Positions 1 through 21,300 of a stretch of 64,000 nt of DNA are shown here, in pieces. Numbering within the stretch: the first letter of the stretch is position 1; the number at the start of each line of letters is the position of its first letter. Made by a program: the position numbers and the translations under genes. Source of the DNA: Macrostomum lignano (taxonomy: Eukaryota); contig NIVC01002409.1 in NCBI GenBank assembly GCA_002269645.1, forward strand, positions 62,001 to 126,000, given 5' to 3'. The notes under the pieces were generated by a model. It did no database searches. It had not been told where the DNA came from and worked only from the letters and a program-made list of their open reading frames with translations.

Positions 1-478
1 GGTGTACATCGATATGTAGTCAACGATATTAACACAAAATTAGGCTAGTGAAAACTACTTCTAGTAGGTGAAATTGCGTATATTTACATAAAAAGTAGAT
101 AAAACGTATCAGTATGTGTAAATATCGGTGCATAATGCATATTACCCGCCTGGCCAAGTGGTCCGGCTTTTCATCCGGTTTTGGTCCGTATCGTCCAGTT
201 TTTATGCCTTTACCGGACTACCGGACCAATTCGTCCGGTTATCGTCCGGTTTCGAAGTCCGGGTGAAAAACCGGACAAAAACCGGTCAAAAACCGGATGA
301 ATTTTTACTCCGGAATCATACCGGACGAAAAACGGACGAATTCGGCCCAGTTCCGGATGTAGGGACCTGTTTTGATCCGAATTTTTGTCCGGTTTCCATC
401 CGGAAACTTGTCCGGTCCTAATCGGACAATTAAGCGGACAAAATCCAGATGGAAACCGGACTAAATCTTGCGAGATCA

Positions 479-917
479 GTAAGTAAGCCTTCACAGTCTT
501 CACAGTCTACGAAGTGTACTTTTTAGTTATGCATCATACGTACAGGATTCGCTTTAACTCCGCCAATGCCGGTCCCAAGCCCGGTTGAAAAAGGAGGAGG
601 GTTTGGGGAGACGGTCTCTCCAGTAGAAGCCATCTTTCGTATCTAATTTATTATGAAGCTGAATATGAACTTCAATTTATACAGCAATTATCTGGCTACA
701 ATATATGACACTACCTCATGTGTAGGACTACCTCAAGTGTAGGAAAGCAAACAATTAGTTTCGCTATGATAGGTATCTTGGAGGTATCTTTACTGTGTCT
801 CCAGTAATCTTATAGATAACACTGTCCAATGACCCATACTATGATACCATTGATGATGAGCACTATATGTACTCTGAAAAACACGACTAACCTTAGCTCC
901 CCAAACTTGCATTGCAG
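479..917 (+). other. Predicted 5'-UTR intron of the transposase gene, containing the twister ribozyme
   Basis: Donor GTAAGT at 479-484 (alternative GTAAGC at 483), branch point GACTAAC at 885-891, acceptor TTGCAG ending at 917, 27 nt upstream of ATG 944. Confidence 0.6.
550..606 (+). ncRNA. Twister self-cleaving ribozyme (P1 type)
   Basis: UAA-CUCC-GCC-AAU-GCCGG-UCCC-AAGC-CCGG-UUGAAAAA-GGAG-GAGGG (555-601) matches the twister core as I recall it from the rice twister (UAACACUGCCAAUGCCGGUCCCAAGCCCGGAUAAAAGUGGAGGG). P2 is covaried (CUCC 558-561/GGAG 593-596), P4 is CCGG 569-572/581-584, and both pseudoknot partners are intact. P1 is weak. Predicted cleavage between U555 and A556. Confidence 0.88.
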
Positions 918-943
918 CCCGCACCTAGTGGTTGTCCGTGTCC

Positions 944-3900
944 ATGCAGCCCTCAGGACGCAACCGGCGGCAGTATATGCAGCAGCGAAGGTTCGAGCAG
1001 AAGCTAAAAGCTGCCATAAGTAAGGGTCAGCCGTCGCTTTCCCACTCCCCAATTCAACGCGATTCTGCAACTCTGCAGACCCACGAGCCGAAACCCTCTG
1101 GCAGCGTTAATCGTACGGCAGGTATGTACTGTTCATCGAATACATCACATGGCTGCAACGAGAGAAAGTGTTACTTTTTACTACTTCTTTCAATTCCTTA
1201 TACCTTCTCGGGACAGGCGATGGCATTGTCGCGGCAGCCAGCGCCAGCGTCGACGAAGCCGACAGCGACACTGACAGCTACGCCAGCAGTGGCGCGGCGC
1301 CCCAGGGCAGCGGCGACGAAGCCGACAGCGACACTGACAGCTACGCCAGTGGTGCTGCGCCCCAGGGCAGCGGCGACGAAGCCGACAGCGACACTGACAG
1401 CTACGCCAGTGGTGCTGCGCCCCAGGGCAGCGGCGACGAAGCCGACAGCGACACTGACAGCTACGCCAGTGGTGCTGCGCCCCAGGGCAGCGGCGACGAA
1501 GCCAACAGCGACACTGAACACTGACAGCTACGCCAGTGGTGCTGCGCCCCAGGGCAGCGGCGACGAAGCCAACAGCGACACTGACAGCTACGCCAGTGGT
1601 GCTGCGCCCCAGGGCAGCGGCGACGAAGCCAACAGCGACACTGACAGCTACGCCAGTGGTGCTGCGCCCCAGGGCAACGGCGACCAGGCCGACATCGACG
1701 CCAGCGGCGCTGCGTCCCAGGGCAGCGGCGACGAGGCCAACAGCGACGCCAGCGGCGCTGTGCCGCCAAACTTCGACCTCTTCCAGCACCCATGGCACGA
1801 TGGGGTACTGGCTGAGCCCATATACTCCATAGCGCCTGCCATTTGTGAGGTCAATGACTGCGCTATTGACCTGCAGATTCCCCGTGAAAAAGTCGGCCGG
1901 CTTTTGGCTACCATCCATCGCCTCGTCCCCGGCAACAGGTTGCCGCGGACGGCGAAGACGTTGTGGCGGAATATGAAAAAGGCCCAAAGTTGCATCGGCT
2001 CCTCAAAGTGCATGACTGTGTGCAATTCCTGTCGATGTAACTATCCAGGAGACAGCAGCCAGAATGAAGGACTTTGTCGGAACTGCAATTCTCAACTTGT
2101 CTCAAATTTCTGGGTGTTCGATATCCGTCAGCAAATTAGGACTTACATCGAGGCCTGTGGATTGCTGCAGAATGTCACCTTTCCCGTGGACTTCCAACAA
2201 CCGGAGGATTGCATTCACTTCTCAACCAGCCAAATGTATGCCGAGTTTATTGAGGCGATTGAACCCCAGGATCGAATGGACTTGTCCTACACCCTGAGCT
2301 CGGATGGCTTCTCGCTGCATACTACCAGCCGAGTTGAAGTCTGCCCCGTGTACATCAGCATCAACGAAGTCCACGACCGCTTCAAACTGAAGTATGTCGT
2401 CATTTGTGGTGTATGGGCGGGAAAGAAGAAATTGCACGCGTCTGCCTTCCTTCCTTGTCTCATCGGCGCGTTGAATAACCTGCGCACGCGAGGCGTCACC
2501 TACTTAGACGACGAATCTGTGCGACGGACAATCCGGTTTCATTCGCTTCAGACCCTCTTCGACGCACCCGCTCGGGCCGACGCTCTGAATATGAGGCACT
2601 GTACGGCCACTTACGGTTGCGACAAGTGCTACATTGCCACACGTCTGCACCCATCCGGCAGTGGTCGCTACTACGACGTGGAGATTACTCCCGCAATGCT
2701 GAACGAAGCCGCCCGTCTCGGTTGTGTGCAGACCGTCGTACGCAGCATGACCGACACGTCTCATCTTGCTGAACTGCATCTGCAACGGATACCTTCTGAT
2801 CCGAACGGCGACGTCCTTGGAGTCCGCGGTCATTCTCCCCTTGGCGAAATTCTCGGATTTTACTTCGTTCGAGGCTGTCCGCCGTGTTACCTGCATCAGC
2901 TCAACGTCGGTCTATGCAAAATGAAGATGCTGCAGTTTTTTTCTGTTCGGCGCGACAAGCCTGACCGTGGCCCAGTGTCCGGATTTACACGCGAGGCAGT
3001 ACCAAGTAGACGCCCGACTGCGGAATCTTTACGTGCCCGATTGCGTGCAGCGGCATTCCGTTCGTCCGCTCAGTGACCTACGCAATATGCGCGGTCACGA
3101 GTTTGAAATGTGGCTCCTCGCTTACGGGCCACTCGTTCTTGACGGAATTCTACCAAAGGCCCATATGGACCACTTCAAGGTCCTCTCTTCCGCTGTATTT
3201 TGGATGACGGCTGACTATGCGCCCAAAACCGAATTGCGACACGTGGAAATTTCCCTGCGGCATTACCACGCGAACTTGCAGCGTCTGTTTTCGCTACGGG
3301 CTCTCACCTACAATGCACATCAGGTGTGCTGCCACATGCTGGCCTATGTGCACCTCGCTGGATCCGCGCATCGCCTATCGACTGGCCTCTTTGAAACCAT
3401 GCACAACCGTTTGGCGCAACGTCTTCATGGGACCCGCCGCAGCGATGTCGAATTGGTGAATGCTGTTGAGCGCCAGATCGGCAGCATCCAAGCGAGAGCA
3501 CGACTCCTAGGCCGGCAAGTTCCACGGCAGCAGGATGAGCGGGACCTGCGCCGCTTTGAGATCCACACCGTCGGGGGCGCTGTCCTTCGCAGGCCGAAGT
3601 CTCAACAAGTTGGCTGGCAAACCGTCTCGCTGCTGTCTGGCTGGAAAGTCAGCGCGTATCGGCCTGCAGGCGCCAGGAGAGACGCGGCCTGCTTTGCGGC
3701 TGTCGCCGACCAAACGTCCCCAACAGAGTTCCGATTCTGTCGGGTAGCCTCCATCGACGTGGAAGGTGACATCGTCGTGCTGAAGATCATCGTGCTGCCC
3801 CTGATGCAACCCGAGCCGGACCCACTGGAGTCGCTGGCCCAAGTTCCTGCAGCCTCGGTAAATCGTGGCTGCCGCTTCGTCCACGTTAGGCGACTGGGCT

Positions 3901-4025
3901 GTGACCCATTCGGTGACCTACGCATTGAACCGGTCGCCGTGCGACTCGAGGCGCTTCGTGGGGTCTGCGGTCTGCATGGCCGCAAAATTGCCTTGTTGCC
4001 CCATCCGCAATTGTGCTTCGCGTGA
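944..4025 (+). pseudogene. EnSpm/CACTA DDE transposase, frameshifted in this copy
   Basis: Family motifs SDG (D at 2303), CPVYISINE, ICGVWAGKK, FDAPARA..N......YGCDKC (D at 2561), YLHQL..GLCK, LLAYGPLVL, TYNAHQ..H and GLFE. Model: 944-1121, intron 1122-1216 (GTATGT..ACAG), 1217-4025, with a 7-bp duplication (ACACTGA, 1511-1524) and a +1 shift near 3001-3008. Confidence 0.88.
1252..1760 (+). repeat. 60-bp coding tandem repeat (DEADSDTDSYASGAAPQGSG) in the transposase N-terminus
   Basis: About 7 near-identical units plus shorter degenerate units. Confidence 0.9.
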
Positions 4026-4647
4026 ACATTAACTGCTTCGATGCTTCGTTTGTAACTTCTGTTTCAATACATGTCCGTTTATTTATATTATGCTACGCTA
4101 GGTAAGCATAAGCAATTCAATAAGACAGGGATTTAACTCGTGTAGAACATATTCTGCTTGTTTTGCTGTATTATATTATGTATGCGTGCCGTACTAATAA
4201 TAATAAAATTTATCAAAAAAGACACTAATTTTGGTTGTACACTATTGCGTTGACTTCAATTATTAATGTAGATTTATCAAACATGGGTCTAATTGTAGGA
4301 GCATTAAAACTTATGGCAGAATTTTTTGTTGAAATTTGTTATAAAAACTCAATCGGATGCTTTCGTAAAAATCAGGTGCTAGAAAAATCGTACTCAAAGC
4401 CATTTTGATCCCAGCGAGTAAGGCTACTCGTAAGTGAAAGTTGAAGATCTTAGTAGACTGTTTAAATAACGGCATTTACATTTATGGCTGTGTATAGATA
4501 CAATGTGTAAGACCTGTCTGGGAAGCAAATGTAGTTTGATGGCTTGCTTAATTAAGGGTTATTTTTAAACGACGACCAAACGTAGTTTGAGCCCCTATTA
4601 AAATTGATGAGCGCCGAAATCCACACGCCTCACGCCTTTGCAGCTGC

Positions 4648-5488
4648 ATGGCAACTGGGCATTCTGGGCATTTCCCGTCATGGGCGGCCGGACGAAGCGA
4701 TACCCAGTCTATGCCTCTAGCAGATCTTCGATCCTGCATCCAAGAAGCCGAACAACGAGGCGTGCGCGTGTACACGAGTACTCGTAGTCTGCTACTCTTC
4801 GTGGAGGCACTGAACGTGATCGACTCAGGTTGGCTGGCTACAAGGCACTGTTTCCGACGAGACCTCATCAATTAATGCTTTAATTAACGCGCCGGCCTGC
4901 CAGACGTTTCCAGATATTCAAAAAGGAGCGACATTTCTTCTTGAGAGCCCAACACTTTTCAATGTCGACTCCGATTTGCACGGTCGCTACTCGTTGTCTA
5001 TCGCACCAGGGCAGATTCGACGCGTATATCCGCGCCCAGTGGTGGGTAATTCATTTATGTTCCGGTTTGCTTCCATCAATGCGTCGTTTCAGTCAGTCAA
5101 ATCACTTCAGTCAAACTCGCGGCACTTATTAGTTTATTTATTTATTCGCACGCACGCCAATATTATGGTCTGCACCGTCACATACTTACCACTGCAGGAA
5201 GCCACGTTCGTGAGCTATTACGGACCCGAGTCGAGCAGCTACCGTGACTACACGATCGTGTCCACAGAGGAACTTCCGACTAGTCGTCGACCATGTCAAC
5301 TCGGTTCGCCACCACCATCCAAAACGCCTGACAACGGGTCCCAAGAAAGCACCGAATGGAACATGTTTGACACCCAGTCTGAGTCCCAGTCTGCGCTGGA
5401 GGTGCCGGCATCTGCAGTCTTGGAGTGCGTCTGCGGCCAAGGCAATTTCCTCGGCTGCACTTGGTGCAGGCGACATGCTAAGAAGTAG
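4648..5488 (+). pseudogene. Transposon accessory gene: HROB/DUF4539-like OB-fold protein with a C-terminal Cys cluster, frameshifted
   Basis: Removing the TGGC duplication (4831-4838) gives LLLFVEALNVIDSGWLQGTVSDETSSINALINAPACQTFPDIQKGATFLLESPTLFNV..RYSLSIAPGQIRRVYP. By eye this aligns with the human HROB OB fold as recalled (FKDPTGEMQGTVH..LKPGSVLLL..YLNVTPNNLVHIY). Probable intron ~5042-5197. Ends CVCGQGNFLGCTWC. Confidence 0.55.
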
Positions 5489-5941
5489 AAAGTTTTACAG
5501 TAGAAACTATTTGGCGGTCTATTATATCCTAACGTATAGTTTGGTTGCCGAATTGCATTTTCTGCATTGCAGTTCTTCTGTCAAGTTGTGGCTTACCCTG
5601 ATAATTATTAAAGCTGACATCATTATTGAGAGAACTGCTGAGTTCTCTATTCGTGAAAATAATTGTGTCTATTTTTCTTTGCTTTTAATACTGTTTTAAG
5701 TTTCCATAGAAAGGCTTATGCGCTCCTCTCCTCTCCTCTCTCCTGTCTCCTATATCCTCTCGATCCTCTCTCCTATCCTCTCTCCCTAGCTCTCCTCTCT
5801 TCTCCTCTCCGCCATCCGCCATCCGTTACGGACAGTTCGCTTTCGTATTCAATTCAGTTGCATTAAGTCAGTTAAGTCAGCCACAGAAATTTTTACAGAA
5901 TGTACATCACAAAACGTTTCCCGCAGCACAACTGCATCGTT

Positions 5942-7931
5942 ATGGGCCACTTAAGTAAATCCAAAGAAAAAAATAAAAAACAAAGTGAAAAAAACGAAGC
6001 GAAAAGTCTAATTCGAAACGGACAACGCAGGCCACCGTCACCAAAAGGCGAAAACTGGAAGCGGCTGCTGGTTCCGCTGCTGCTTCGACAGAGCCGCCGA
6101 CCTCGGGCTCTACTGTACGTGCTGCTGGTTCCGCTGCTGCTTCGACAGAGCCGCCGACCTCGGGCTCTACTGTACGTGCTGCTGGTTCCGCTGCTGCTTC
6201 GACAGAGCCGCCGACCTCGGGCTCTACTGTACGTGCTGCTGGTTCCGCTGCTGCTTCGACAGAGCCGCCGACCTCGGGCTCTACTGTACGTGCTGCTGGT
6301 TCCGCTGCTGCTTCGACAGAGCCGCCGACCTCGGGCTCTACTGTACGTGCTGCTGGTTCCGCTACTTCTGCATACTTGCAGTACGACTGCGTGCCGTACA
6401 AAACAGAGGGTACGAGGAGATTCTTTTTATTCAAATATTCCAACTATCACGAGAAAACCGATGTGGTCTCCACGGACGACATTGTCGGCCGCAAACGCGA
6501 TTCGTCAATACCCGTCGCTGTGGGCAGCGAAGTTCTTATAATCAAGGCTAAAGTCAATAGAACTGCGGCCAAAAAGTGGCATGGCACCCTGGTGCAGGGG
6601 CCATTCACAGAAAGGAATGCAGCCGCACGTGCAGCTTCGTTAACTAATGTTCACACCACGAGTGTCGAGCTGCCAAGGACTTGTGGCTCCTGCCGCAGCT
6701 TTTCTGTCGAAGTCCAGCGCCAGTTGGCGCCAATAGAAACTTTACGTGAGTAAATTTTTACGTTTTTAGGCATACATACACCCTAAGCCAGGATCCTCAA
6801 CAGGACAATTCCCGCATATTTATAGGGGGACAGCTAAAATCGGCGACTCAGAAGGAGACCCAGCTGCGCGAAGATAATCAGTCGCTGACGGAGCAGCTTT
6901 GCGTATCCAGCAGAATGGAAAAAAGTCTGCTGCGCCAGTTGGAGGCAGAGCAGCGGCGCAGCACTAGATTGGTAGAAGCTGCGCAGCGCAGCAACTCGCT
7001 GCTTCTCAAATCGTCGGACATCCTCTGCCACGCCACGTCCGGCCGGGTAAAGTCCGGTACCAGTCAGTCCCTGACTGATCGGGAAACTTCTGAGTCAAGC
7101 ATGCAGAGGGGAGGAGCCGTTGGTGCAGCGGCGTGTGCCCATCAACAAGACGAAGATGAGGCCGATGAGGTCGATGAGGATCTCAGTTTCACATGCGAAC
7201 AGAATCTGTCTGTTGCACAGACTCGTGCGCTGCTGACTGCAAGCCAGAAGGCAGCAAACTGTTCGGAGACCTCGTCCTCGTCCGGCTACGTGTCGCTCTC
7301 AGAGACGCAGCCGTTCGTCAAGGTGCAATTTCAGCGGCGCGCGGATCTTCAAAGGCGACTGGAAGAATTCGGAAAGGTGCCAGCCCCGTCCGATGCGGAG
7401 CACGCAGATGTCACGTTCATTCGTGCAACGGCCCTGCAGGCCCTCCTCCGCGCTCTGCTGCGCACTATGTTCACGGACGAACAATTTGCTAGTTCTAGCA
7501 TATCGGGTCGCAACTCAGAGGTGGCAAACCCAGGAAAGATGGCTGCGGTGAGAGTCTGGCTGGCCGAGAACAAAATTAGCTACACGCAAGCCAATCTAAA
7601 CAGGGCGTTCAATCGTTGCAGTGATACGGCTAAAGACCACCTCGGCATCTCGGGTATCAAAAAGCGTGCAGCTATGTCCGTCCCAATGCGGTCCAAGAAG
7701 CCCGGTACAGGTGCCGCTGCAACGAAGCGCTCAAAGAAGGCCGCCCAGAGCAGTGAGAGCACAGTTGTTGTCATCGTGGACGATCCCAGTAGCGCCAACC
7801 AGAACATCTATCCGTCTGCTTCGAATGCTACAGTTGCCAGTTCGGCCGATGCGAGCGCCGGCAGTTCGACAGCCAATTCCGGCAGTAGCGGCACTGTCGA
7901 TATGCTGCAGGAACTGTATTCGAATGATTGA
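5942..7931 (+). CDS. Transposon accessory gene: NLS + 19-aa repeats + coiled coil + BEN domain
   Basis: Model 5942-6745 + 6826-7931; intron 6746-6825 (GTGAGT..TATAG) keeps the frame. One -1 indel is needed in the A-runs at ~5988-6006. Features: KRRK NLS, coiled coil (QLREDNQSLTEQL..LLRQLEAEQRR) and BEN-like LLRALLRTMFTDEQFASSSISG..NPGKMAAVRVWL at ~7440-7630. Confidence 0.65.
6064..6366 (+). repeat. 57-bp coding tandem repeat (AAGSAAASTEPPTSGSTVR), about 5 copies
   Basis: Identical units read directly from the sequence. Confidence 0.9.
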
Positions 7932-9024
7932 CTGATTTTTATAGTTCAGACTTTCTTACTTTCCTACGTTTTGATCGTATGAGCAGGTTGAAGCAACGTT
8001 TTGAGGAGTGTGAATAAACGGAACGGGAGTCGACGTAAGATTGTTTCTTTTAGTGTTTTTAGTAATTCAATGGACAAATCTACAGTACAGGATATTGTGT
8101 TTCATGCGTTTAATTTGTTTCTTTGTGAACTATTTGTGAACTATGGCTACAGTAGTAGCAGCAGCAGCAGTAGTAAACAAAATCAGCATTCTGTCTTCCG
8201 GTTTTCGCCCGTTGTTGGTCCGCTTCTTCATCCGGTTCAGCTCCACATTCGCACTCGCCCGGTTTTCGCCCGCTTTTGGTCCGGCTGTTGGTCCGGGAAC
8301 CGCCCGGACGAACTACCAGGTGAAATTCCAGATGAGCACCGGGCGAAGCAACCGGACGAAGTCCTCAAAAAACATGTTCTCGTCCGGATTCCTAACCATT
8401 TGCGGACAAACGAGATACGAGAAAAATAAAATACATAACGCACCGGATGAAAACCGGCTGCAAAGCCGGATTTGCAGCCGGATGAAAAACCGGACCACTT
8501 GGCCAGGCGGGTTACGAAACATATAGTTGTACAGTCATAAGCATATGGGCAGCAAAAAACACACAATGTAGGTGCATATTATCGATATATTTGCAGAAAA
8601 GTAGGTGAAATATACAAAATAATACAAAGCAGGTATATATCGCTTATTAGTGTAGTAGGTGCTTGTAGATGCTAGTATAATAAAAACATAGGTTGACTCA
8701 TACGCACAATAGGGCTCTCCCAGGACAATAGTAAGAGATACGCCCCCGCATTCCTCCCCAGCGCCGCGACCAAGGGACCGCGGGCTGAGTAATGTTTCGA
8801 GGGGATCCCAATGTACAGTGCAGGCAGAGAGCTATTTTCCTACCCAAATGGGGTTTTTATTCAAGGGACCCCTCACCTAGTACAGTGCGGGCAGAGAGGA
8901 GTAACAGAGAGCAATAGAGACCGCCCCATGTACAATGCGCTCCAGGGTTGAGGTGTCAAATGGGAGTTTTTGATCCCCCGCCCCAATGTACAGTGCGCTC
9001 CAGGGTGTCAAATGGGAGTTATGA

Positions 9025-9753
9025 GTGTCCCCTCACGGATACAGAGACTGCACAAGCAGAGTGCATTCCTCCCCAGGGCTTCCAAACGATAGTTATGAAG
9101 GACCCCTCACCAAGTACGGTGCGGGCGGGGTAACACGCCCCGGGGGGGAACCCCACGCGATCCTTATCGCTCACTCGCGAAAGCCATACGGACGGCTGGC
9201 GGCCCCATACACCCTCTTAGTCATGGAAGTGTGGAAGGACGGCTTCCCAGCAATCTATTTGAGCGAGCCAGAGTGGAAGAAGCTCGAAGCTTTGCGCCCT
9301 GACCTGGAGGCTGCCGCCCGCCTTCACGTGGACAAGCGGGTCGTGCTGGGCAATTTCAAGGCGGTCGAAGCTTCACGGGGGCGGATTCGTTTGCGGCGCA
9401 ATTGGCTCAATCGGGATCCAAAGTTTAATTGGCGCTACATGATCGAATTCACGCCGGAACTGTGGCACCGGATGCTTGCGGCCGGTTTAGACAAGCTCTT
9501 CAAGCCGGCACCCGAGGCCCCGCCGCCGGCAAAGCGAGCCAAGACAGAGACCCCTCCAGTAGCCAGGACTGAGGAGGAAAATCTCCAGGACGTTCTCCAC
9601 GACTCCAGGTTGTGGGTCTCAAGCCCTACCAATCCCCGCCCTGGGAAAATCTGTTTGACAAGAGTCAGCGCTGGTAGTTTCCTATTGGCTCACACCACCC
9701 CGCGGGGCCCCTATATAACTAATCTGTCCTGTCTTCAGAGAGCCAGGCCCTAA
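9025..9753 (+). CDS. PC4/Sub1-like ssDNA-binding protein (possibly tandem PC4 domains) in the outer element
   Basis: VVLGNFKAVEASRGRIRLRRNWLNRD..IEFTPELWHRM resembles PC4 (IGKMRYVSV..IDIREYW..GISLNPEQW). An upstream AIYLSEPEWKKL is a second half-motif. PAKRAK NLS. Start uncertain (ATG 9223 possible). Confidence 0.6.
   Translation: MSPHGYRDCTSRVHSSPGLPNDSYEGPLTKYGAGGVTRPGGEPHAILIAHSRKPYGRLAAPYTLLVMEVWKDGFPAIYLSEPEWKKLEALRPDLEAAARLHVDKRVVLGNFKAVEASRGRIRLRRNWLNRDPKFNWRYMIEFTPELWHRMLAAGLDKLFKPAPEAPPPAKRAKTETPPVARTEEENLQDVLHDSRLWVSSPTNPRPGKICLTRVSAGSFLLAHTTPRGPYITNLSCLQRARP
9629..9718 (+). promoter_or_regulatory. Pol II promoter-like cluster inside the outer element
   Basis: CCAAT 9629-9633, GC box CCCCGCCC 9634-9641, reverse CCAAT 9684-9688, TATATAA 9712-9718, then a CT-rich leader and CAACATG at 9798-9804. 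Confidence 0.45.
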
Positions 9754-9960
9754 TTCCTAGCTCTGATACTATACTCTCTCTCTCTCTCTGTTGATTCCAA
9801 CATGTCCCGCCGAGCTCTATCCACCCTCTGGGATAATAATCGCCCCCCCCCCTGAAGAGTTAACCTCCCTCGACGGTGAAATACCCGAACATATAATCCC
9901 CTAGGCACAGAAAACAACGGAACTGATAATTAGGGGGCTGATATATCCTTGGCTTGGGCT

Positions 9961-10779
9961 ATGTGGGCTATGACCTATGATAGCGACACTGAGTCTGAAG
10001 TTTTCGACCTCCCGCTGCTGACTATCGGAGGGGTTGTGAACGGTGCCCCTGCTGCTGCCGCCTCTGATTTGACCGCTGCATCTGCCGCCCTCTTTGAGGT
10101 CTCTGTTGATGAGCTGACCACTGCTGCGACCGTCTCTGCCTCTGCTGCCTCCACTGTTGTCTCGTCTGCTGCCGTCTCTGCCTCTGCTGCCTCCACTGTT
10201 GTCTCGTCTGCTGCCGTCTCTGCCTCTGCTGTCTCCACTGTTGTCTCGTCTGCTGCCGTCTCTGCCTCTGCTGCCTCCACTGTTGTCTCGTCTGCTGCCG
10301 TCTCTGCCTCTGCTGCCTCCACTGTTGTCTCGTCTGCTGCCGTCTCTGCCTCTGCTGCCTCCACTGTTGTCTCGTCTGCTGCCGTCTCTGCCTCTGCTGC
10401 CTCCACTGTTGTCTCGTCTGCTGCCGTCTCTGCCTCTGCTGCCTCCACTGTTGTCTCGTCTGCTGCCGTCTCTGCCTCTGCTGCGCCCGTCTCTGCCTCT
10501 CGCCTGGCCTCAATATCATCAGCCGCTTCGCTCCTTCTCTTTGACGATGAGGACGAGGATATGTCCGGGGAGATCGCCATGGTTCGTGAGCGCCTTCCCC
10601 GCATTGTGGCCTCATTTTTCCGCGGGGACATTGACTGGCTGAGGTCTCGCCACCCCGGCGGCCTGCCCTCCCAAGACACCTTTGTCAGAGCCTTTAATCG
10701 GGTTCTCGATACCTTGGTGTCGAGGGGGCTGGTCTACGGGAGGTGTTGGAGGCGGAGACGTTACACCAGGATTGGTTAA
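9961..10779 (+). CDS. Orphan ORF with a 42-bp Ala/Ser/Val repeat and basic C-terminus
   Basis: Open frame; about 8 copies of ASAASTVVSSAAVS (10130-10490); unique C-terminus ending RCWRRRRYTRIG. No family recognised. Confidence 0.4.
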   Translation: MWAMTYDSDTESEVFDLPLLTIGGVVNGAPAAAASDLTAASAALFEVSVDELTTAATVSASAASTVVSSAAVSASAASTVVSSAAVSASAVSTVVSSAAVSASAASTVVSSAAVSASAASTVVSSAAVSASAASTVVSSAAVSASAASTVVSSAAVSASAASTVVSSAAVSASAAPVSASRLASISSAASLLLFDDEDEDMSGEIAMVRERLPRIVASFFRGDIDWLRSRHPGGLPSQDTFVRAFNRVLDTLVSRGLVYGRCWRRRRYTRIG

Positions 10780-11287
10780 ATGGGGCGTAATTCGTATGCC
10801 TCTGACTCGGAGGCGTACCTGGCAGGTCCGGGAGCGCGCCCGACTGCGTGGGATGAGCCTGCTGCAGCTATCTGGCCCTCCAACTGGGAGGAGCACCTCT
10901 CGCTGGTGCGCTATACGGCGTCTCTACGCCTGTGGCGGCTGGGGGATCTAGATTTGGTAAGATATTACGCGGCATTTACATTTCATGTAATCATATACAA
11001 GGCTTATATTCTTTCTACATTGAATTTTTTAATTTTCACATTGACAGTCGGCTGACTACTGCTTCGAGAGCGCTGAGGAGGAGGCCGCGTATGAGACAGC
11101 CCTGAGGGAGCGGATGGAGGTTGACTCAAAAGGGGATTTCTCTTTATACTCTATTACTCTCTGCCTGCACTGTACTTGGGCCTCGCAACACACTGGGGAT
11201 CCCTCAACTTGGATTCTACTTGGAGAGTTACCCTCTGGGGATCCACTAAAACCCCCATTTGGGGGCTTGGGGTGGGAGCTGCGGTAA
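10780..11287 (+). CDS. Orphan spliced ORF in the outer element
   Basis: ATG directly follows the previous TAA. Phase-0 intron 10957-11047 (GTAAGA..TGACAG) joins to SADYCFESAEEEAAYETALRERME.., stop at 11285-11287. Confidence 0.4.
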
Positions 11288-12049
11288 AGTTTGACTGGAA
11301 TTCTGTATGTGGTCTGTTACTCTACCTCCACTGTACATTGGGGCGGGATCCCTTGAATAAAAACATGGGGAGGAATGGAATTTCTCTATGTTACTCCTCT
11401 CTGCCCGCACTGTACTAGGTGAGGGGTCATTGGGGCGGGGGATCAAAAACTCCCATTTGACACTTCAACCCCGGAGCGCATTGTACATGGGGCGGTCTCT
11501 ATTGCTCTCTGTTACTCCTCTCTGCTCGCACTGTACTAGGTGAGGGGTCCCTTGAATAAAAACCCCATTTGGGTAGGAAAATAGCTCTCTGCCTGCACTG
11601 TACATTTTGGGATCCCCTCGAAACATTACTCAGCCCGCGGTCCCTTGGTCGCGGCGCTGTGGAGGAATGCGGGGGCGTATCTCTTACTATTGTCCTGGGG
11701 GAGCCCTATTGTGCGTATGAGTCAACCTATGTTTTACATTATACTAGCATCTACAAGCACCTACTACACTAATAAGCGATATGTACCTGCTTTGTATTAT
11801 TTTGTATATTTCACCTACTTTTCTGCCAATATATCGATAATATACATTACATTGTGTTTTTTACTGCCCATATGCTTATGACTGTACACCTATATGCGTA
11901 TTTCGTAATATGCATTATGCACCGATATTTACACATACTGATACGTTTTATCTACTTTTTATATAAATATACGCAATTTCACCTACTATAAGTAGTTTTC
12001 ACTAGCCTAATTTTGTGTTAATATCGTTTACTACATATCGATGTACACC

Positions 12050-12850
12050 CATATCGGAAGAGTGTACACTCGTATCGGGAGAGTGTACCTTTGGCTCGGG
12101 AGGGTGTACCTTTGGGGCGCCTGCAGCATACATATCGGGAGGGTCGCCTGCGGCATACATGTCGGGGTACATATCGGGAGGGTGTACATATCGGGGTACA
12201 TACATAGGTACCGACGACCTGAAGAGACGACGAGGACTGGCCTGGGCCGCATTTTGATCTGTGCGCTCCGTGCTCCAATCTGAGGCCCTGGACGACGGGC
12301 TCAAGGCTCGGCTGTTTCAGACAGTCGTCGAGACTGTCCTGTTGTACAACGCCGAGACTTGGACCCTGACGGACGCCTTGGAGAGGCAGCTGGACGCTGC
12401 GCATGCGGCAATGCTGCGTGCGGCTTTCGGAGTGCGCAGCGGCCCAGGCAGCGAGACCAATGCCGCGCTCTACACTAGGGCACGCCTGATGCGGCCTTCT
12501 GACCTGCTGCGCGGGCGGCGACTTCAACTGGCTGGCCATGTCATCCGGTCGGAGGCCCGCTGTCCTGAGCCGCTACACGACATGCTGCTGCTCAAGCTGC
12601 AGGGACCGCGGAGGCGAGGCCAAGGGCGAACGGTGCGATACCCTGACCGACTTCTGAGTGACGCTGGCGCCCCGGACCAAGCAGGGGGATGCGACTTCCT
12701 GAAGGCAATGGCCCACAGACGCGCTTTCTGACTGCTCCCCCCTTTCTGGCTACTGCGTGGCCGGCGGGAGCAGTACCTTGTTGTTGTTGTTGTTATATAT
12801 ATCGGGAGGGTCGCCTGCGGCTCGGGAGGGTGTACATATCGGGAGGGTGC
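12050..12850. repeat. TCGGGAGGGTGTAC-type subterminal repeat array, split by the LINE insertion
   Basis: About 10 related copies at 12050-12205 and 12796-12850. Confidence 0.7.
12207..12794 (+). mobile_element. 5'-truncated RTE-clade LINE fragment (RT C-terminal region, 3' UTR, (TTG)n tail)
   Basis: DDLKRRRGLAWAAF* / ETVLLYNAETWTLT / RRLQLAGHVIR are typical of the region downstream of RTE reverse transcriptase. In-frame TGA near 12255; stop at 12731; TTG tail at 12778-12794. No convincing TSD. Confidence 0.8.
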
Positions 12851-14169
12851 GCCTGTGGCATGGGCGCCTAGATGGCGCTTGGCGCGGCGCGCACGCCAGC
12901 CAATGAGAGGCGAGGAGGGTTGACACCCACCCACCTCCAAAAGGGACCTTACGGGGTCATTTAGTAGTACGAGCTAAGTAATGTGCTAAGATTTTCATAA
13001 AACTAATTATATTGTGCGTATTACCTGCTTAGCCTAGTATTGATACAAGTAGTTAGCAGTGACGCAGTGGGAGGATTTTGATTTGGTGGATTTTCATAAA
13101 TTGCTCATTGTTAGGCTTTTTCACTCGATGCACAAAAGGATAAAAAATAAATTAATGTTGTTATATTAATTGCATTGCATTTATCTGCATTTGAAGCGGC
13201 ATTTGCAAGGGCCCCAAATATATTGTGATGGGAAAAGGGCACCAGGGATCAGGTGGGAGCAGACGCGAGGGGAGCAATAGTGAAGCTCATCAGAGATGCG
13301 GTGCGGCTCTTCGCTGAATCAATAATAACAGGCGGGCCCAAGGTGGCCGGGGGCAGTGACCCCCCACGAAAATATATTGCAGCATGGTAACAATGTACCA
13401 CCTCCAAGGTAGGAGTAAATAGCTTGCTAATGCCGCCCCTCTCTCCATCGCTATAAGGCGCACTTTCCCGTGTCCCTTTGCTAGTGCTATATAGTTACAG
13501 CCTTGGCGCCCCCTTAGCACTGGATGGCGCCCTTGCAAACATCGCCCCCCCCCCAAAAAAAACCCAAAAATCCTGGGCCCGCCATTAATCAGTAATAGCC
13601 TCGAAGTGCATATTTAAACAAATCCGTACCTTCTTTCAGTCGGCAGCTTCTTGAATTCATTCTTGGTGTGCTGCCGGGTGTTTACCGGGAAAATTAAAGC
13701 TGATGTGTGCAGCAGTATTAGTTTCTGTGCTGTGGTGTATGGGGGTAGAAAAAGGGAATCGAAGACACGAAGGGGCACTGCTGTCACTACTTATAATTGA
13801 ATAATGGATCAGTGATAAAAATTGAGTCATTTATTACATATCGTTGGAATTTTAGTGCCTGGTTTGCAGTCATTGAAAGAAATTGTTTTTTTGTTGTGGT
13901 TTAAGACTTTTTAAGAATTGACCTGTCAAACTGTTGCCATCAATCAAGAAGTCCCAGTCTCCGCCCATACAAAATGCCACCTCACTCACCGGGAATCCGC
14001 CATCATCGCTGCTATTCCTCATCGGAGACGTCGCCGTCAATCAATGGGAGCTGTCTGCAGGCCATCTGCATCCGGTACTCTTCGAGTCTTGTCTGCGAAC
14101 TTCGAATTGCAGCCGCAGGAAATCCTCGCAAGCCGCTTTTATCCGCTTCTCCTTCAGCAGGCGCCGCGC

Positions 14170-15390
14170 CTCCTGCTCCTGCTTCTGCTCCCGCTTCTGC
14201 TCCTGCTTCTGCTCCTGCTCCTGCTCCTGCTTCTGCTCCTGCTCCTGCTCCTGCTTCTGCTCCTGCTCCTGCACCTGCTCCTGCTTCTGCTCCTGCTCCT
14301 GCTCCTGCTCCTGCACCTGCTCCTGCTCCCGCTTCTGCTCCTGCTTCTGCTCCCGCTTCTGCTTCTGCTTCTGCTTCTGCTTCTGCTCCTGCTTCTGCTC
14401 CCGCTTCTGCTCCCGCTTCTGCTCCCGCTTCTGCTCCTGCTTCTACTTCTGCTTCTGCTCCCGCTTCTGCTCCTGCTCCTGCACCTGCTCCTGCTTCTGC
14501 ACCTGCTCCTGCACCTGCTCCTGTACCTGCTTCTACTTCTGCTTCTGCTCCTGCTTCTGCAACTGCTACTTCTGCTCCTGCTTCTGCTTTTGTTCCTGCT
14601 TCTGCTCCTGCTTCTGCTCCTGCTTCTACTTCTGCTCCTGCTTCTGCACCTGCTTCTACTTCTGCTCCTGCTTCTGCTCCTGCTTCTCCTCCTGCTTCTA
14701 CTTCTGCTCCTGCTCCTGTACCTGCTTCTACTTCTGCTTCTGCTCCTGCTTCTGCAACTGCTACTTCTGCTCCTGCTTCTGCTTTTGTTCCTGCTTCTGC
14801 TCCTGCTTCTGCTCCTGCTTCTGCTCCTGCTCCTGCTCTTGCTCCTGCACCTGCTCCTGCACCTGCTCCTGTACCTGCTTCTACTTCTGCTTCTGCTCCT
14901 GCTTCTGCTCCTGCTTCTACTTCTGCTCCTGCTTCTGCTTCTGCTCCTGCTTCTGCTCCTGCTTCTGCTCCTGCTTCTACTTCTGCTCCTGCTTCTGCTT
15001 TTGCTCCTGCTTCTGCTCCTGCTCCTGCTTCTGCTTCTGCACCTGCTCCTGCACCTGCTCCTGTACCTGCTTCTACTTCTGCTTCTGCTCCTGCTTCTGC
15101 TCCTGCTTCTACTTCTGCTCCTGCTTCTGCTTTTGTTCCTGCTTCTGCTCCTGCTTCTACTCCTGCTTCTGCTCCTGCTTCTACTTCTGCTCCTGCTTCT
15201 GCTTTTGCTCCTGCTTCTGCTCCTGCTTCTGCTCCTGCTTCTACTTCTGCTCCTGCTTCTGCTTCTGCTCCTGCTTCTGCACCTGCTCCTGCTTCTGCTC
15301 CTGCTTCTACTTCTGCTTCTGCTTCTGCTTTTGCTTCTGCACCTGCTCCTGCTTCTGCTTCCTGCTCCTGCTTCTTCTGCTCCTGCTCCG
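14170..15390. repeat. Low-complexity (GCT/CCT/TCT/ACT) triplet-based repeat, ~1.2 kb
   Basis: Read directly; it produces the poly-Leu, PAS, CS and RS ORFs in the track. Confidence 0.9.
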
Positions 15391-16251
15391 CACGGTACCA
15401 CCTGATCGACTGATCCCCACTCTTAAACCCTTCGCAATGTTTGCAAGTGTTGCGTCATGATACAACAGTAACTTCTATTGTTGTGGCACGGTTGATAGAA
15501 CTGCAGATTTTTCTAGGACAGTTATTTCCCGTCAGGTATGGAAGCCCAGAAGGAAGCTCAGCGCAAATATTTCACTGAGCGGCTTAAGGGCATTCAGGGA
15601 GGGTGACTCCATGGCGCAGCCTCAGCCGCTTGCATCCCTGCAAGCCAGGTTTGATTTCGGGGTCATGCACAGCACAGAAGTGCTGCTGGGGACCCTCTTT
15701 GATATGCAACTCTTTTTGTAGCTCCGTGGGCCACCATAGACGAAATAGGTATAGGCAACACTTGTGAAAATAAAATATACGATCATACTGCGAACACAAA
15801 AAGTTTGCAGTCAAATGAAAGGGAATTTTTAGCTTTCCAATGACTTTAAGCTTGTTCGATTTTAGGCATGCATTATAAAATCTATAGCCAAAATATCGCT
15901 ACTTTTTGGTTGCACCTCGTATTTCAGTTTTTCATACCAAAATTTTATACCAAAACAGCCAAAAAACAGTATTTTACGAGCGCAAGTCTATGATTCATCG
16001 GCTGCTCATGCGTGAAAACTTGCCGTGAAAGCGCAGCGCAGTCTTCTGTGGCATGCTAGCGAATGCAGACGCTGAGCTGCCTCCTATACTGCCAATCTCA
16101 GCCTCACGCCGAGCTTAACGCTTGGAGACTCGTTTTTCCAGAGCTGTGAGTTGAAAATGCATCAACCATGCGACAGCAGCCACAACAGCTCAACTCTGCC
16201 TATCGCATCTGAGACTTTGAGCGGCAGTTCGCCACCCAAAACCATCTGAAA

Positions 16252-18362: not shown

Positions 18363-21300
18363 TTATTTGACCAGCCCGTCAATAACACCGGAGATTATTT
18401 CCACGCATTTGTTAATCTGCGCCTCGTTGATGACCAGCGGCGGCGCCAGGCGGATGATGTCGCCGTGGGTTGGCTTGGCCAGCAGGCCGGCCTCCGCCAG
18501 CTTCAGGCACACCTCCCAGGCATCGAACTCTGAGATTAAGGGGGAGGGAATCCAGGCTTGAGCAGGTGAGATTCGGCCTTTCTGGCTTCGAGTAGTACTA
18601 AATACTAAACAAGGGGTCGGGGATACAGAGGGGAGATGAGATGGGAAATGAGAGAGGGAGATAAGAGAGAGGGGTGTTGTTAAAGAGAGCGTAGTGACTA
18701 GCTCGTACTGCAAGTTAGTGATTGGGTGTAAGGCAATGAGGAAGTGAGGTGGAGATGAGAAAGGGGAGATCAGAGAGGGGAGACAAGAGACAGATGACAA
18801 GGGAGACAAGAGAGGGGAGATGAGAAATGGGAGATAAGAGGGGAGACAAGAGAGGGGAAAAAGAAAGGAAAGATATGAGAGAAGAGATGAGAGGGAGGTG
18901 AGAGAGGGGAGATAAGAGAGGGGAGATGAGAGGGAGATGAGAGAGGGGAGATGAGAGAGGGGAGATAAGAGGGAGATGAGAGAGGGGAGATGAGAGAGGG
19001 GAAAAAGAGAGGAAAGATATGAGAGGGAGGTGAGAGAGGGGAGATGAGAGAGGGGAGATGAGAGGGAGATGAGAGAGGGAGATGAGAGAGGGGAGATGAG
19101 AGAGGGAGATGAGAGAGGGGAGATGAGAGAGGGGAAAAAGAGAGGGGAGATGAGAGAGGGGAGATGAGAGAGGGGAGATGAGAGGGAGATGAGAGAGGGG
19201 AGATGAGAGAGGGGAGATAAGAGGGAGATGAGAGAGGGGAGATGAGAGAGGGGAAAAAGAGAGGAAAGATATGAGAGGGGAGATAGGAGAGGGGAGATAA
19301 GAGAGGAGAGATGAGAGGGAGGTGAGAGAGGGGAGATGAGAGAGGGGAGATGAGAGGGAGATGAGAGAGGGAGATGAGAGAGGGGAGATGAGAGAGGGAG
19401 ATGAGAGAGGGGAGATGAGAGAGGGGAAAAAGAGAGGGGAGATGAGAGAGGGGAGATGAGAGAGGGGAGATGAGAGGGGAGATGAGAGAGGGGAGATGAG
19501 AGAGGGGAGATGAGAGAGGGGAGATGAGAGTGAGATAAGAGGGCAGATAACAAACGGTGCAAACTGCAAGTGAGCAACAACAGGGAAACTCTGAGAAAAG
19601 CTGTCAGAATGCTGTGATCGGAGCAGACAGACTCCAGTCGCGCAATTGATACGATAGTTAGCAGCCAGACAAAGGCGGGGGGTATGGGCTCCGATTCTGA
19701 GAATCACGCGCTCCCCGCGTGCTTAGGTGAGGGCGGAGGGTGCGCAGGGGACGCACTCCGAAGCAGGAGTCTATGGAGTCTCAGCACAGGCTGCAGCTTG
19801 CAGAGCCCCCTACTCACTCACTGAGCAGCCACCCCTCCTCTCTCAGCCTGTCTGTCTGTCGTAATTGCCTTCTTAGCAATGCAGCACTGGAGGCCAGCTG
19901 TCCGGCATGCAGGCAACAGATTTACAAAACAGCAACGCTAAGAAAATTTTCAACCTGTGCGGTCGGTATGAATAAGCAATCAAAAAATTCTAATTAAAAT
20001 ATGCCTCACATTAAAACCCCAAAGCAATTTCCAGAGAGAGCAATTATCCTTCAAATGAGATTGGGATACAATAATCCTAAATCTAAACTTCCCTACTTAA
20101 CCCTAATCCTAGCCCTAACTTAAACTTCCAAGCGCGAGGGAACAGCCATAAAGATTCCAGACTCTGCCGGGCACCTCACCCTGACTGATCACGATGGCAT
20201 TCAGCAGGCCCTTGCCGCGCACGGTCTTCACCACCTTGCCGGACAGCCGGGACAGCTCCTTCCTGAGCAGCGTGCCCTGCCGCTCCGCGTTCTCCGCCAG
20301 GCCCTCCTCCTCCAGCACCTGCAGTGCCGCCATGCCGACCCGGCAGGCCATGGGGTTGCCGCCGTAGGTGGAGCCGTGCTCGCCGGGCCCGACTGACAGC
20401 ATCACTTCGTCATCGCCCAGCAGGGCGGACACCGGGTACAGTCCACCGGACAGCGCCTTGCCCAGGCACACCAGATCCGGCCGCACCTGTCCGAGGGGTG
20501 GGTTTGAGGATTTATCTAAGATTTTTGGGTATTTTTAATGTAAGTGTTTGACTTTTCGGGAATAATTCCCAAGTGTCCGAGTTTTTTATTTAATTACCGT
20601 GTCCGAGCTTTGGGATTTATGACGGTCGAGTGTCCGATTTTTTTTAGATGGCCATGTACGAGTTAGAGATTTATGATTTCCATCGAGTGTCCGAGATTTG
20701 AATTAAGAATGTCCAGAGTGTCCGAGTTTGGATTTATAATGTCCACTAAGTGTCCGAGTTTAGGATTTATAATGACCACTGAGTGTCCGAGTTGGCGATT
20801 TATAATGACCACCGAGTGTCCGAGTTTGGGATTTATAATGTCCACTAAGTGTCCGAGTTTAGAATTTATAATGTCCACCGAGTGTCCGAGTTTGGGATTT
20901 ATAATGTCCACCGAGTGTCCGAGTTTGGGATATATAATGTCCACCGAGTGTCCGAGTTTTGAGATTTCAAATCGCCGAGTGCGGTGACTCACCTTCTCGT
21001 GGTCGCTGCAGAGCCGCTTGCCAGTGCGCGCGAGGCCGGTCTGCACCTCGTCGCAGATGAGCAGCGCCCGGTGGCGGGTGCACAGCTCACGGGCTCCACG
21101 CAGGAAGCCATCCTTGGGCACCACGACGCCGGCCTCACCCTGGATGGGCTCAACCATGAAGGCCGCCACGTTGGGGTCCTGCAGCGCCTTCTCAAGGGCC
21201 TGCGGTGTGGGAAGGGAATAATGAGATTTATGCTATGAATTCCCTCACGGATTTTGACTTGGAATTTTCCTTGACAGCTACAAACTGGGGATTTCCATTG

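Follow-up and report, generated by a model that had tools for sequence, protein, structure and literature searches.

The window analysed here is a 64,000-nucleotide stretch of the Macrostomum lignano genome (contig NIVC01002409.1, positions 62,001 to 126,000 of the forward strand; G000:C2409:62001-126000 in the 764-Mb assembly that was searched). At its left edge lies a mobile element with long terminal inverted repeats (TIRs) around a few damaged genes. This copy is a dead, internally deleted polymerase unit of a Polinton-derived system that is probably split into two units, one carrying a family B DNA polymerase primed by protein (pPolB) and the other an integrase and capsid module, which would cooperate. 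The parts of the element, in window coordinates, are the following.

1..144, + strand: middle part of the left TIR, which runs on to ~235 bp left of the window
8512..8988, + strand: inner part of the left TIR, 96% complementary to 11428-11896
9171..9224, - strand: last 17 codons and stop of the parent's pPolB, the sole remnant of that gene, with 89-92% DNA identity to positions 1244-1313 of the parent copy C493
9223..9753, + strand: beheaded PC4-fold gene (open reading frame 1, ORF1), which starts at the deletion junction
9802..11149, + strand: broken orphan gene (ORF2 plus ORF3), with breaks near 9850 and at 10730-10780
11428..12206, - strand: inner part of the right TIR, from the arm alignment
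12207..12794, + strand: inserted 3' fragment (~590 bp) of a LINE-like element (long interspersed nuclear element) with a (TTG)n tail
12795..12968, - strand: outer part of the right TIR with the true terminus, family-A type, reading 5'-ACTACTAA from the end
12969..12974, no strand: first six flanking bases, ACGAGC

The arms of this copy, ~850 bp each, align as three inverted block pairs (negative positions lie left of the window): 8520-8988 with 11428-11896 (96.2% over 472 bp), -177..145 with 11905-12206 (91.6%) and -236..-171 with 12795-12860 (97%). They enclose 2439 nt, in agreement with the first-pass annotation of this DNA, which had described long inverted arms around ~2.4 kb. The left arm is interrupted by an 8.4-kb EnSpm/CACTA insertion and the right arm by the LINE-like fragment, a putative label that we take from the (TTG)n tail and an RTE-type C-terminal motif. 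The same annotation had argued that an intact right arm proves the EnSpm insertion; the insertion stands, by virtue of an empty homologous locus described below, while the intactness does not, given the fragment at 12207-12794. It had also seen no AG..CT terminus, and there is none: the right terminus reads ...TTTAGTAGT at 12968. On the left, the outer ~110 bp and the terminus are gone, and an inverted copy of TIR positions 7-83 stands in their place. Leftward extension showed that the arm continues, but did not reach a left terminus: no match to the terminal 108 bp was present in 30 kb left of the window or in the further flanks of two homologous loci. No empty pre-insertion site of the element was found, the right flank being present only in three filled copies.

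The interior is the product of a deletion. Window positions 9159-9224 match 1244-1313 of the parent copy C493 and 9228 onward matches C493 from 6704 onward, leaving a gap of ~5.4 kb with 2-bp microhomology at the junction. This junction created the ATG of ORF1 (9223); the match to the parent PC4-fold protein begins at about codon 36 of C493, so that ~35 N-terminal residues are gone, and the encoded protein lacks the first strands of the PC4-type fold. UniRef names for ORF1 such as 'replication endonuclease' were discarded as unsupported automatic labels. Both ORF2 and ORF3 align to a single parental open frame of 360 residues, in a gene that also has a last exon, and a 42-bp tandem array (10040-10543) lies inside the broken gene. 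What had been read as three compact plus-strand ORFs are therefore not three intact genes. Among the best 40 of 116 candidates, the deletion junction was seen only at three homologous copies of one locus, which also share the right flank (3/3). With the junction seen at one locus within that set, there is no sign that the deleted form has moved, and it does not make up a mobile non-autonomous family of its own. That half of the earlier proposal falls, while the other half, a deletion derivative of a Polinton-like element, holds: full copies carry a group-2 pPolB and 6-bp duplications. Single-copy arms or a transposase in full copies had been named as grounds for giving the idea up; the arms are multicopy and the full copies lack a transposase. 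We regard the deletion-derivative anatomy as almost certain, and the window copy is a single-site fossil that points to its parent family.

That parent family, here family A, consists of units of 8.7-10.5 kb with TIR blocks of 0.4-1.2 kb and the ends 5'-ACTACTA..TAGTAGT-3'. A search with ORF1 gave at least 121 matches among the best 150 of 249 candidates, and in other copies the PC4 gene stands head to head with pPolB. A 6-bp target duplication flanks 53 of the 54 paired units, a count that leaves out the window copy and the integrase/capsid locus L201, in each of which one end was seen. The first copies tested had perfect 6-bp duplications (11/11 in family A, 1/1 in family B), and the same 12 gave no tblastn match to integrase, capsid or ATPase markers at E<=0.01. 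Likewise, none of the 21 complete polymerase-bearing units (median length 9546) matched these markers at E<=1e-6; the markers came from resident Polinton families, so that very distant homologues could escape them, but ORF maps of the 9.5-kb units leave no room. The longer arm copies that the first-pass annotation had hoped for thus exist with pPolB, but not with integrase or capsid genes in cis. Family B, with a polymerase ~70% identical to that of family A and ACTACGTA ends, follows the same plan. Four of its eight complete copies are ~9.5-kb polymerase-only units with non-coding filler, two more have LINE-like insertions in the 5' region of the polymerase gene, one was covered by the marker search only and one has PC4 and dUTPase genes. 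A family-B variant (L048, L046, L179) combines a PC4-fold gene, a serine-rich ORF and a dUTPase; L179 is an inverted-duplication derivative without polymerase and with two dUTPase copies. The orphan gene appears dispensable, because a variant without it sits at separate loci with different duplications (C24, C1024). Parent sequence is present in public sequencing runs; the outside collections viral_contigs and metagenome_contigs gave no useful match.

The parent polymerase matches Pfam DNA_pol_B_2 (PF03175; E 1.8e-17 and 5e-28), with no helicase family in the exon scans, and is a group-2 (Alpha) protein-primed polymerase. An exon search in which all 134 candidates were scored placed it at 56 sites with at least 85% identity and at ~40 with 53-76%. 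Its nearest outside relatives are animal and environmental proteins (30-36% identical), and in a FastTree phylogeny (22 of 28 rows, with long-branch warnings) it stands apart from the polymerases of four resident canonical Polintons. The ratio of nonsynonymous to synonymous substitution rates (dN/dS) on the large polymerase exon is 0.03-0.14 in all 15 comparisons with C493, which indicates purifying selection within capsid-less units; in the palm-exon table, four short or frameshifted rows were set aside. The gene appears to be spliced: contigs from the runs X3, X4 and X14 skip 70, 70, 69 and 232-234 nt at polymerase joints, with CT..AC ends where readable, although in two of the three runs one joint can be read as TG..GT with two intervening letters. 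By arithmetic, the four skips restore the reading frame between neighbouring ORFs. In the orphan gene, a further 91 nt (GT..AG) are missing from X3 and X4 contigs, and the spliced joints are absent from run X17 contigs. Judged by ORF boundaries, three intron positions are common to families A and B; because these are only ~70% identical, the capsid-less state looks old.

The full-length parent PC4-like protein was modelled at pLDDT 90. Human PC4 fills its top six Foldseek rows (probability 1.0, root-mean-square deviation (rmsd) ~1.8, E 0.003-0.01), structure comparison aligned it with Pur-alpha (Z 9.1, rmsd 4.2, 118 aligned) and PC4 (Z 6.5, rmsd 1.7, 66 aligned), and Pfam PC4 scores above cut-off in the family-B homologue. 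On this predicted fold, the protein is a putative single-stranded-DNA binder. Putative motifs resembling vOTU and Vsr domains come from by-eye reading; a terminal-protein/vOTU organisation is described in PMC11161782.

Many units with the same ends carry no genes at all. ACTAC-type end patterns occur 254 and 118 times in the genome versus 6 and 1 in reversed controls, and a group of 25 among the 54 paired units has no genes, a flanking 6-bp duplication and self-complementarity of 80% or more from end to end (5.7-9.9 kb in length, with a median of 9071, n=25; arm identity mostly at least 99%). Elements of this kind that are 8-9.9 kb long include, by end type:

A-ended palindromes, each with a 6-bp duplication at a different site: L153-L157, L159-L162, L164, L165, L168, L196, L203-L205
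B-ended palindromes, each with a 6-bp duplication at a different site: L173-L178, L180, L183

As each sits at a different site with its own duplication, an origin as fold-back artefacts can be dismissed. The A-type palindrome combines family-A TIR blocks and L201-type subterminal blocks (77-97% identity) in a mosaic, with 200-bp blocks in L165 and L166 that are 97% identical to L201 subterminal DNA; the B-type palindrome resembles the filler of polymerase-only B units (76%). Terminal bases 9-27 of ACTAC-ended units form a variable cassette, usually alike at both ends of a copy, and the same cassette variants recur in polymerase units, palindromes and L201. On sequence comparison, this looks like frequent exchange of ends. 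The coding units L040/L041 (C1090, 11.3 kb) and L031/L032 (C1158, 10.5 kb), with large internal inverted duplications and intact target duplications, are intermediates towards full palindromes. We consider the palindromes candidate defective-interfering genomes of a Polinton.

A possible partner emerged from 60 stretches read at ACTAC ends without a nearby polymerase match. One of them, L201 (C150:71201-81200), contains a run of genes leading into an ACTAC end: TBP-like, integrase (rve, E 2e-9), penton-like, capsid (modelled as a double jelly roll, Foldseek E 9e-18 to the PBCV-1 capsid), protease-like and ATPase-like. The protease-like ORF had no match in a PDB sequence search, and the 9.9 kb of L201 that were read hold no polymerase. 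Its terminal 45 nt are 100% identical to those of the polymerase copy C307 (L045), with divergence beyond, and also match the palindromes L160 and L203. Its integrase and capsid are 29-38% identical to those of AG..CT-ended residents, and three proteins in public contigs are 80-81% identical to its capsid. A relative, L209 (C251), has the same upstream genes (58-76% protein identity) and an ACTAC end ~1.7 kb upstream of them, a span too short for a polymerase. At L209:3260-3314 there is a hybrid end whose first 27 nt are family-B-like, followed by a family-A subterminal motif. The L209 type may be the partner of family B. No family-A or family-B polymerase match fell on the C150 or C251 contigs among the 134 scored candidates. 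Put together, L201 and L209 would outline a capsid-type unit of ~10 kb without polymerase.

The genome also houses canonical Polintons, with AGTAGTA..TACTACT ends, 6-bp duplications and their own integrase, numbering in the hundreds. Their ends differ from those of the family only at positions 2 and 5 (AGTAGTA versus ACTACTA), and PC4-fold genes are common to both at ~30% identity. At least three distant canonical groups coexist (L071-L090, L134-L152), several with PC4-like and TBP-like genes and one with a dUTPase; one group has an adenovirus pX-like match (E 0.009). Nesting was seen as a palindrome in an integrase gene (L202), a Polinton in a palindrome (L024) and family-A units beside other-family fragments (L031, L033/L034). 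Beside one canonical Polinton (L049:2791-4785), ORFs were read by impression as a signal peptide and then the start of a cysteine-containing envelope-type protein. Candidates for a partner among these elements were set aside: the C291/C494 family (L081-L084) has integrase, capsid, TBP-like and PC4-like genes but AG..CT ends, a truncated or largely deleted group-1 polymerase and no DNA similarity to A or B units, and the integrase matches next to C1157/C1158 and C471 belong to pieces of other elements. Contigs aligned to the family TIR revealed no partner. Ten distant polymerase loci, checked for an autonomous parent, gave no integrase or capsid marker match; two are family-B copies, one is C234 and the others are fragments or spurious. 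C234 (L095:8189-10000, L096) is a single broken, AT-rich Alpha-type polymerase, 31-36% identical to the family; a penton-like ORF lies 8 kb from it, and no close relative turned up in the genome.

The mechanism proposed here is modelled on the established biology of Polintons, adenoviruses and phi29. On the two-unit reading, copying of an excised or incoming linear unit would start with a protein primer at the shared tip and proceed by strand displacement, the polymerase unit replicating any DNA with that tip and the PC4-fold protein coating the displaced single strand. The integrase of the capsid unit would insert any DNA with the shared tip, giving 6-bp duplications, and its capsid might package, and possibly favour, ~9-kb units. 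During co-replication outside the chromosome, ends and subterminal blocks would recombine, and template switching would homogenise and extend TIRs, swap terminal cassettes and yield snap-back palindromes acting in the manner of defective-interfering genomes. The window copy would then stem from one insertion, followed by loss of 5.4 kb and of the left end, and would have acquired the LINE fragment as well as the EnSpm element, the latter at two of the three homologous copies. In its widest form, about which we are evenly divided, the proposal is that a segmented double-stranded DNA virus, belonging to the PRD1-adenovirus lineage, resides in this animal genome. One segment would carry the spliced polymerase and the other the integrase and capsid genes, with AC..GT ends private to the system; there would be two lineages, A and B, each parasitised by ~9-kb palindromes that the two segments replicate, integrate and select for size, with all of them shuffling a terminal cassette.

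A number of observations weigh against a split system. Particles, free linear DNA and action in trans are predictions of the model. The integrase/capsid module appeared in 1 of the 60 ACTAC-ended stretches, set against 56 family-A polymerase places; the end lists comprise the best 100 of 212-254 rows and L201 diverges after 45 nt, so that the ratio is biased, yet it stays unexplained. The upstream end and target duplication of L201 lie beyond the sequence read, the outline of the capsid-type unit combines two different copies, and in L201:7097-9876 the ATPase gene and subterminal region occur twice in tandem (1.39 kb, 99%), one ATPase copy being frameshifted. The splicing evidence consists of assembled contigs from three studies (X3, X4, X14), whose RNA nature is a guess. 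Duplications also flank small units of 1.1, 3.2 and 5.7 kb, which makes the case for a size limit weaker, and the dN/dS of 0.22 for the window's ORF1 against C493 reflects lineage history and is no proof of decay. Finally, the numerous resident Polintons with their own integrase are a possible alternative helper, and family units are nested inside them.

This last point leads to the alternative that the polymerase units are self-replicating satellites of resident AG..CT Polintons from which they borrow an integrase and perhaps a capsid, L201 being a rare recombinant with an ACTAC tip. The abundance of residents with integrase and 6-bp duplications, the nesting, the PC4-fold genes shared at ~30%, ends that differ at two positions and the single ACTAC capsid locus would all suit it. 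We nevertheless think it unlikely: the L201 genes differ from those of every resident family compared (29-42% identity), so that L201 is no resident that merely exchanged its tip, L209 is a further ACTAC-ended relative, itself diverged, and the palindromes, in which L201-type subterminal DNA recurs at up to 97%, gave no match to the one AG..CT family compared with them. Less plausible still is a monopartite ACTAC-ended Polinton, past or present, whose mobilised deletion derivatives make up all units, in the manner of the zebrafish and Nematostella N1 elements. Polintons that are non-autonomous have been described, as has the concerted loss of capsid genes (PMC4028283), deleted canonical copies exist in this genome (C291/C494, with truncated polymerase) and the far end of L201 lies outside the sequence read. 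Yet with all 134 candidates scored, neither integrase nor capsid genes lie beside the polymerase in the 21 complete units or at the 10 distant loci, the polymerase is under purifying selection in capsid-less units, and the intron positions shared by A and B make the capsid-less state look old. An origin of the arms and palindromes in misassembly or in a local inverted duplication is scarcely credible and, for the family, refuted: long-read assemblies can yield fold-back chimeras and many copies have frame-breaking single-base indels, but palindromes at unrelated loci have differing left and right flanks and direct 6-bp duplications, end patterns far exceed the reversed controls and public runs contain parent sequence.

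The insertion that splits the left arm is an element in its own right:

145..8511, + strand: EnSpm/CACTA-type transposon in the left TIR, 8367 bp, with CCC..GGG ends and a TTA duplication at 142-144 / 8512-8514
944..4025, + strand: its Transposase_21/DUF1258-like transposase (ORFs 944-3076 and 3087-4025), matching Transposase_21 clusters with a score of 0.96
6915..7931, + strand: its accessory ORF, with a weak BEN-domain match (E=0.034, below cut-off)

The Pfam DUF1258 match of the transposase (E=0.019) is likewise below cut-off. The assignment draws on a Transposase_21-type transposase, a short TIR with subterminal repeats and a 2-3-bp duplication. The homologous locus L013 has the same flanks without the insertion (arms of 793 bp at 97.9%) and is a real empty allele, and L014 has the insertion at 99.8% identity; the insertion is thus polymorphic among the three homologous loci. 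It holds a 60-bp tandem array within the transposase ORF and a 57-bp array at 6007-6426. Elsewhere in the window, 12-bp low-complexity tandem arrays at 13974-15413 and 13-14-bp arrays at 18600-19560 give rise to long spurious ORFs.

Should the two-unit reading be true, the split would amount to a natural complementation test: integrase and polymerase would be working in trans on any DNA that bears the correct tip, and the cis signal would map to ~45 bp. It would support the self-synthesis model, as snap-back palindromes are expected from extrachromosomal strand-displacement replication, and the common ~9-kb length of coding and gene-free units would be indirect evidence for packaging, a long-open question. 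The system would also be a living intermediate towards bidnaviruses and linear plasmids.

Several known systems invite comparison. Polintons, or Mavericks, are proposed adintoviruses with Alpha/group-2 pPolB (PMC8502044, PMC8097293, 10.1101/2023.08.22.554363, PMC11161782), and a 6-bp duplication is the signature of their integrase (PMC8097293). The present system resembles them in its long TIRs, 6-bp duplications, pfam03175 polymerase in the parent units, PC4-fold gene as in the residents, and the rve integrase, double-jelly-roll capsid, protease and ATPase on the second unit. It departs from them in the lack of integrase and capsid module in cis on the parent polymerase unit, in gene-free unit-length palindromes that share the parent ends, in parent ends 5'-(ACT)2..(AGT)2-3' that are the reverse of (AGT)2..(ACT)2 in vertebrate Mavericks, and in a spliced polymerase, as opposed to the intronless one of intact vertebrate Mavericks (PMC8097293). 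Polintons are defined by polymerase and integrase together, and the literature surveyed tells of capsid modules being lost rather than of labour divided between units. The literature searched, which excluded Repbase and most subscription journals, yielded no account of a bipartite Polinton, the present family or palindromes derived from Polintons.

Non-autonomous Polintons likewise miss a module: Polinton-1N1_DR, -2N1_DR and -N1_NV appear in Table S1 of PMC4028283, where the Nematostella N1 entries retain capsid, penton and ATPase and no column covers integrase or polymerase. Here, by contrast, a polymerase-only unit is abundant and under selection, and no complete same-ended parent was found. 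Remnants in C. elegans place a polymerase beside a TIR without integrase (10.1101/2024.01.15.575659). Bidnaviruses such as BmBDV have two segments with matching termini and a Polinton-derived pPolB on one (PMC4061559, PMC8502044), to be set beside the 45 identical terminal nt of L201 and C307, one end of L201 being read. They are non-integrating single-stranded DNA viruses with a parvovirus-type capsid, unlike the present system with its double-jelly-roll capsid and both unit types integrated. Yeast linear plasmids of the pGKL1/pGKL2 type are capsid-less pPolB replicons with TIRs and a dependence between two linear DNAs (PMC13348850), but they are cytoplasmic, each with its own polymerase and without integrase or capsid, whereas the units here are nuclear, spliced and integrated. 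Transpovirons also replicate without a morphogenesis module (PMC11161782); theirs is a pPolB-helicase derivative (SF1, Tlr1-like), unlike the parent polymerase exons, in which Pfam scans detect no helicase family. A 2026 preprint speculates on replication modules that move alone and describes pPolBs as consistently paired with DDE integrases (10.64898/2026.10.13.758929), a pattern from which the full pPolB without integrase in cis departs (see also 10.1101/2025.04.19.649669). Against these systems, the novelty lies in the parent: a polymerase unit without integrase or capsid and with reversed AC..GT ends.

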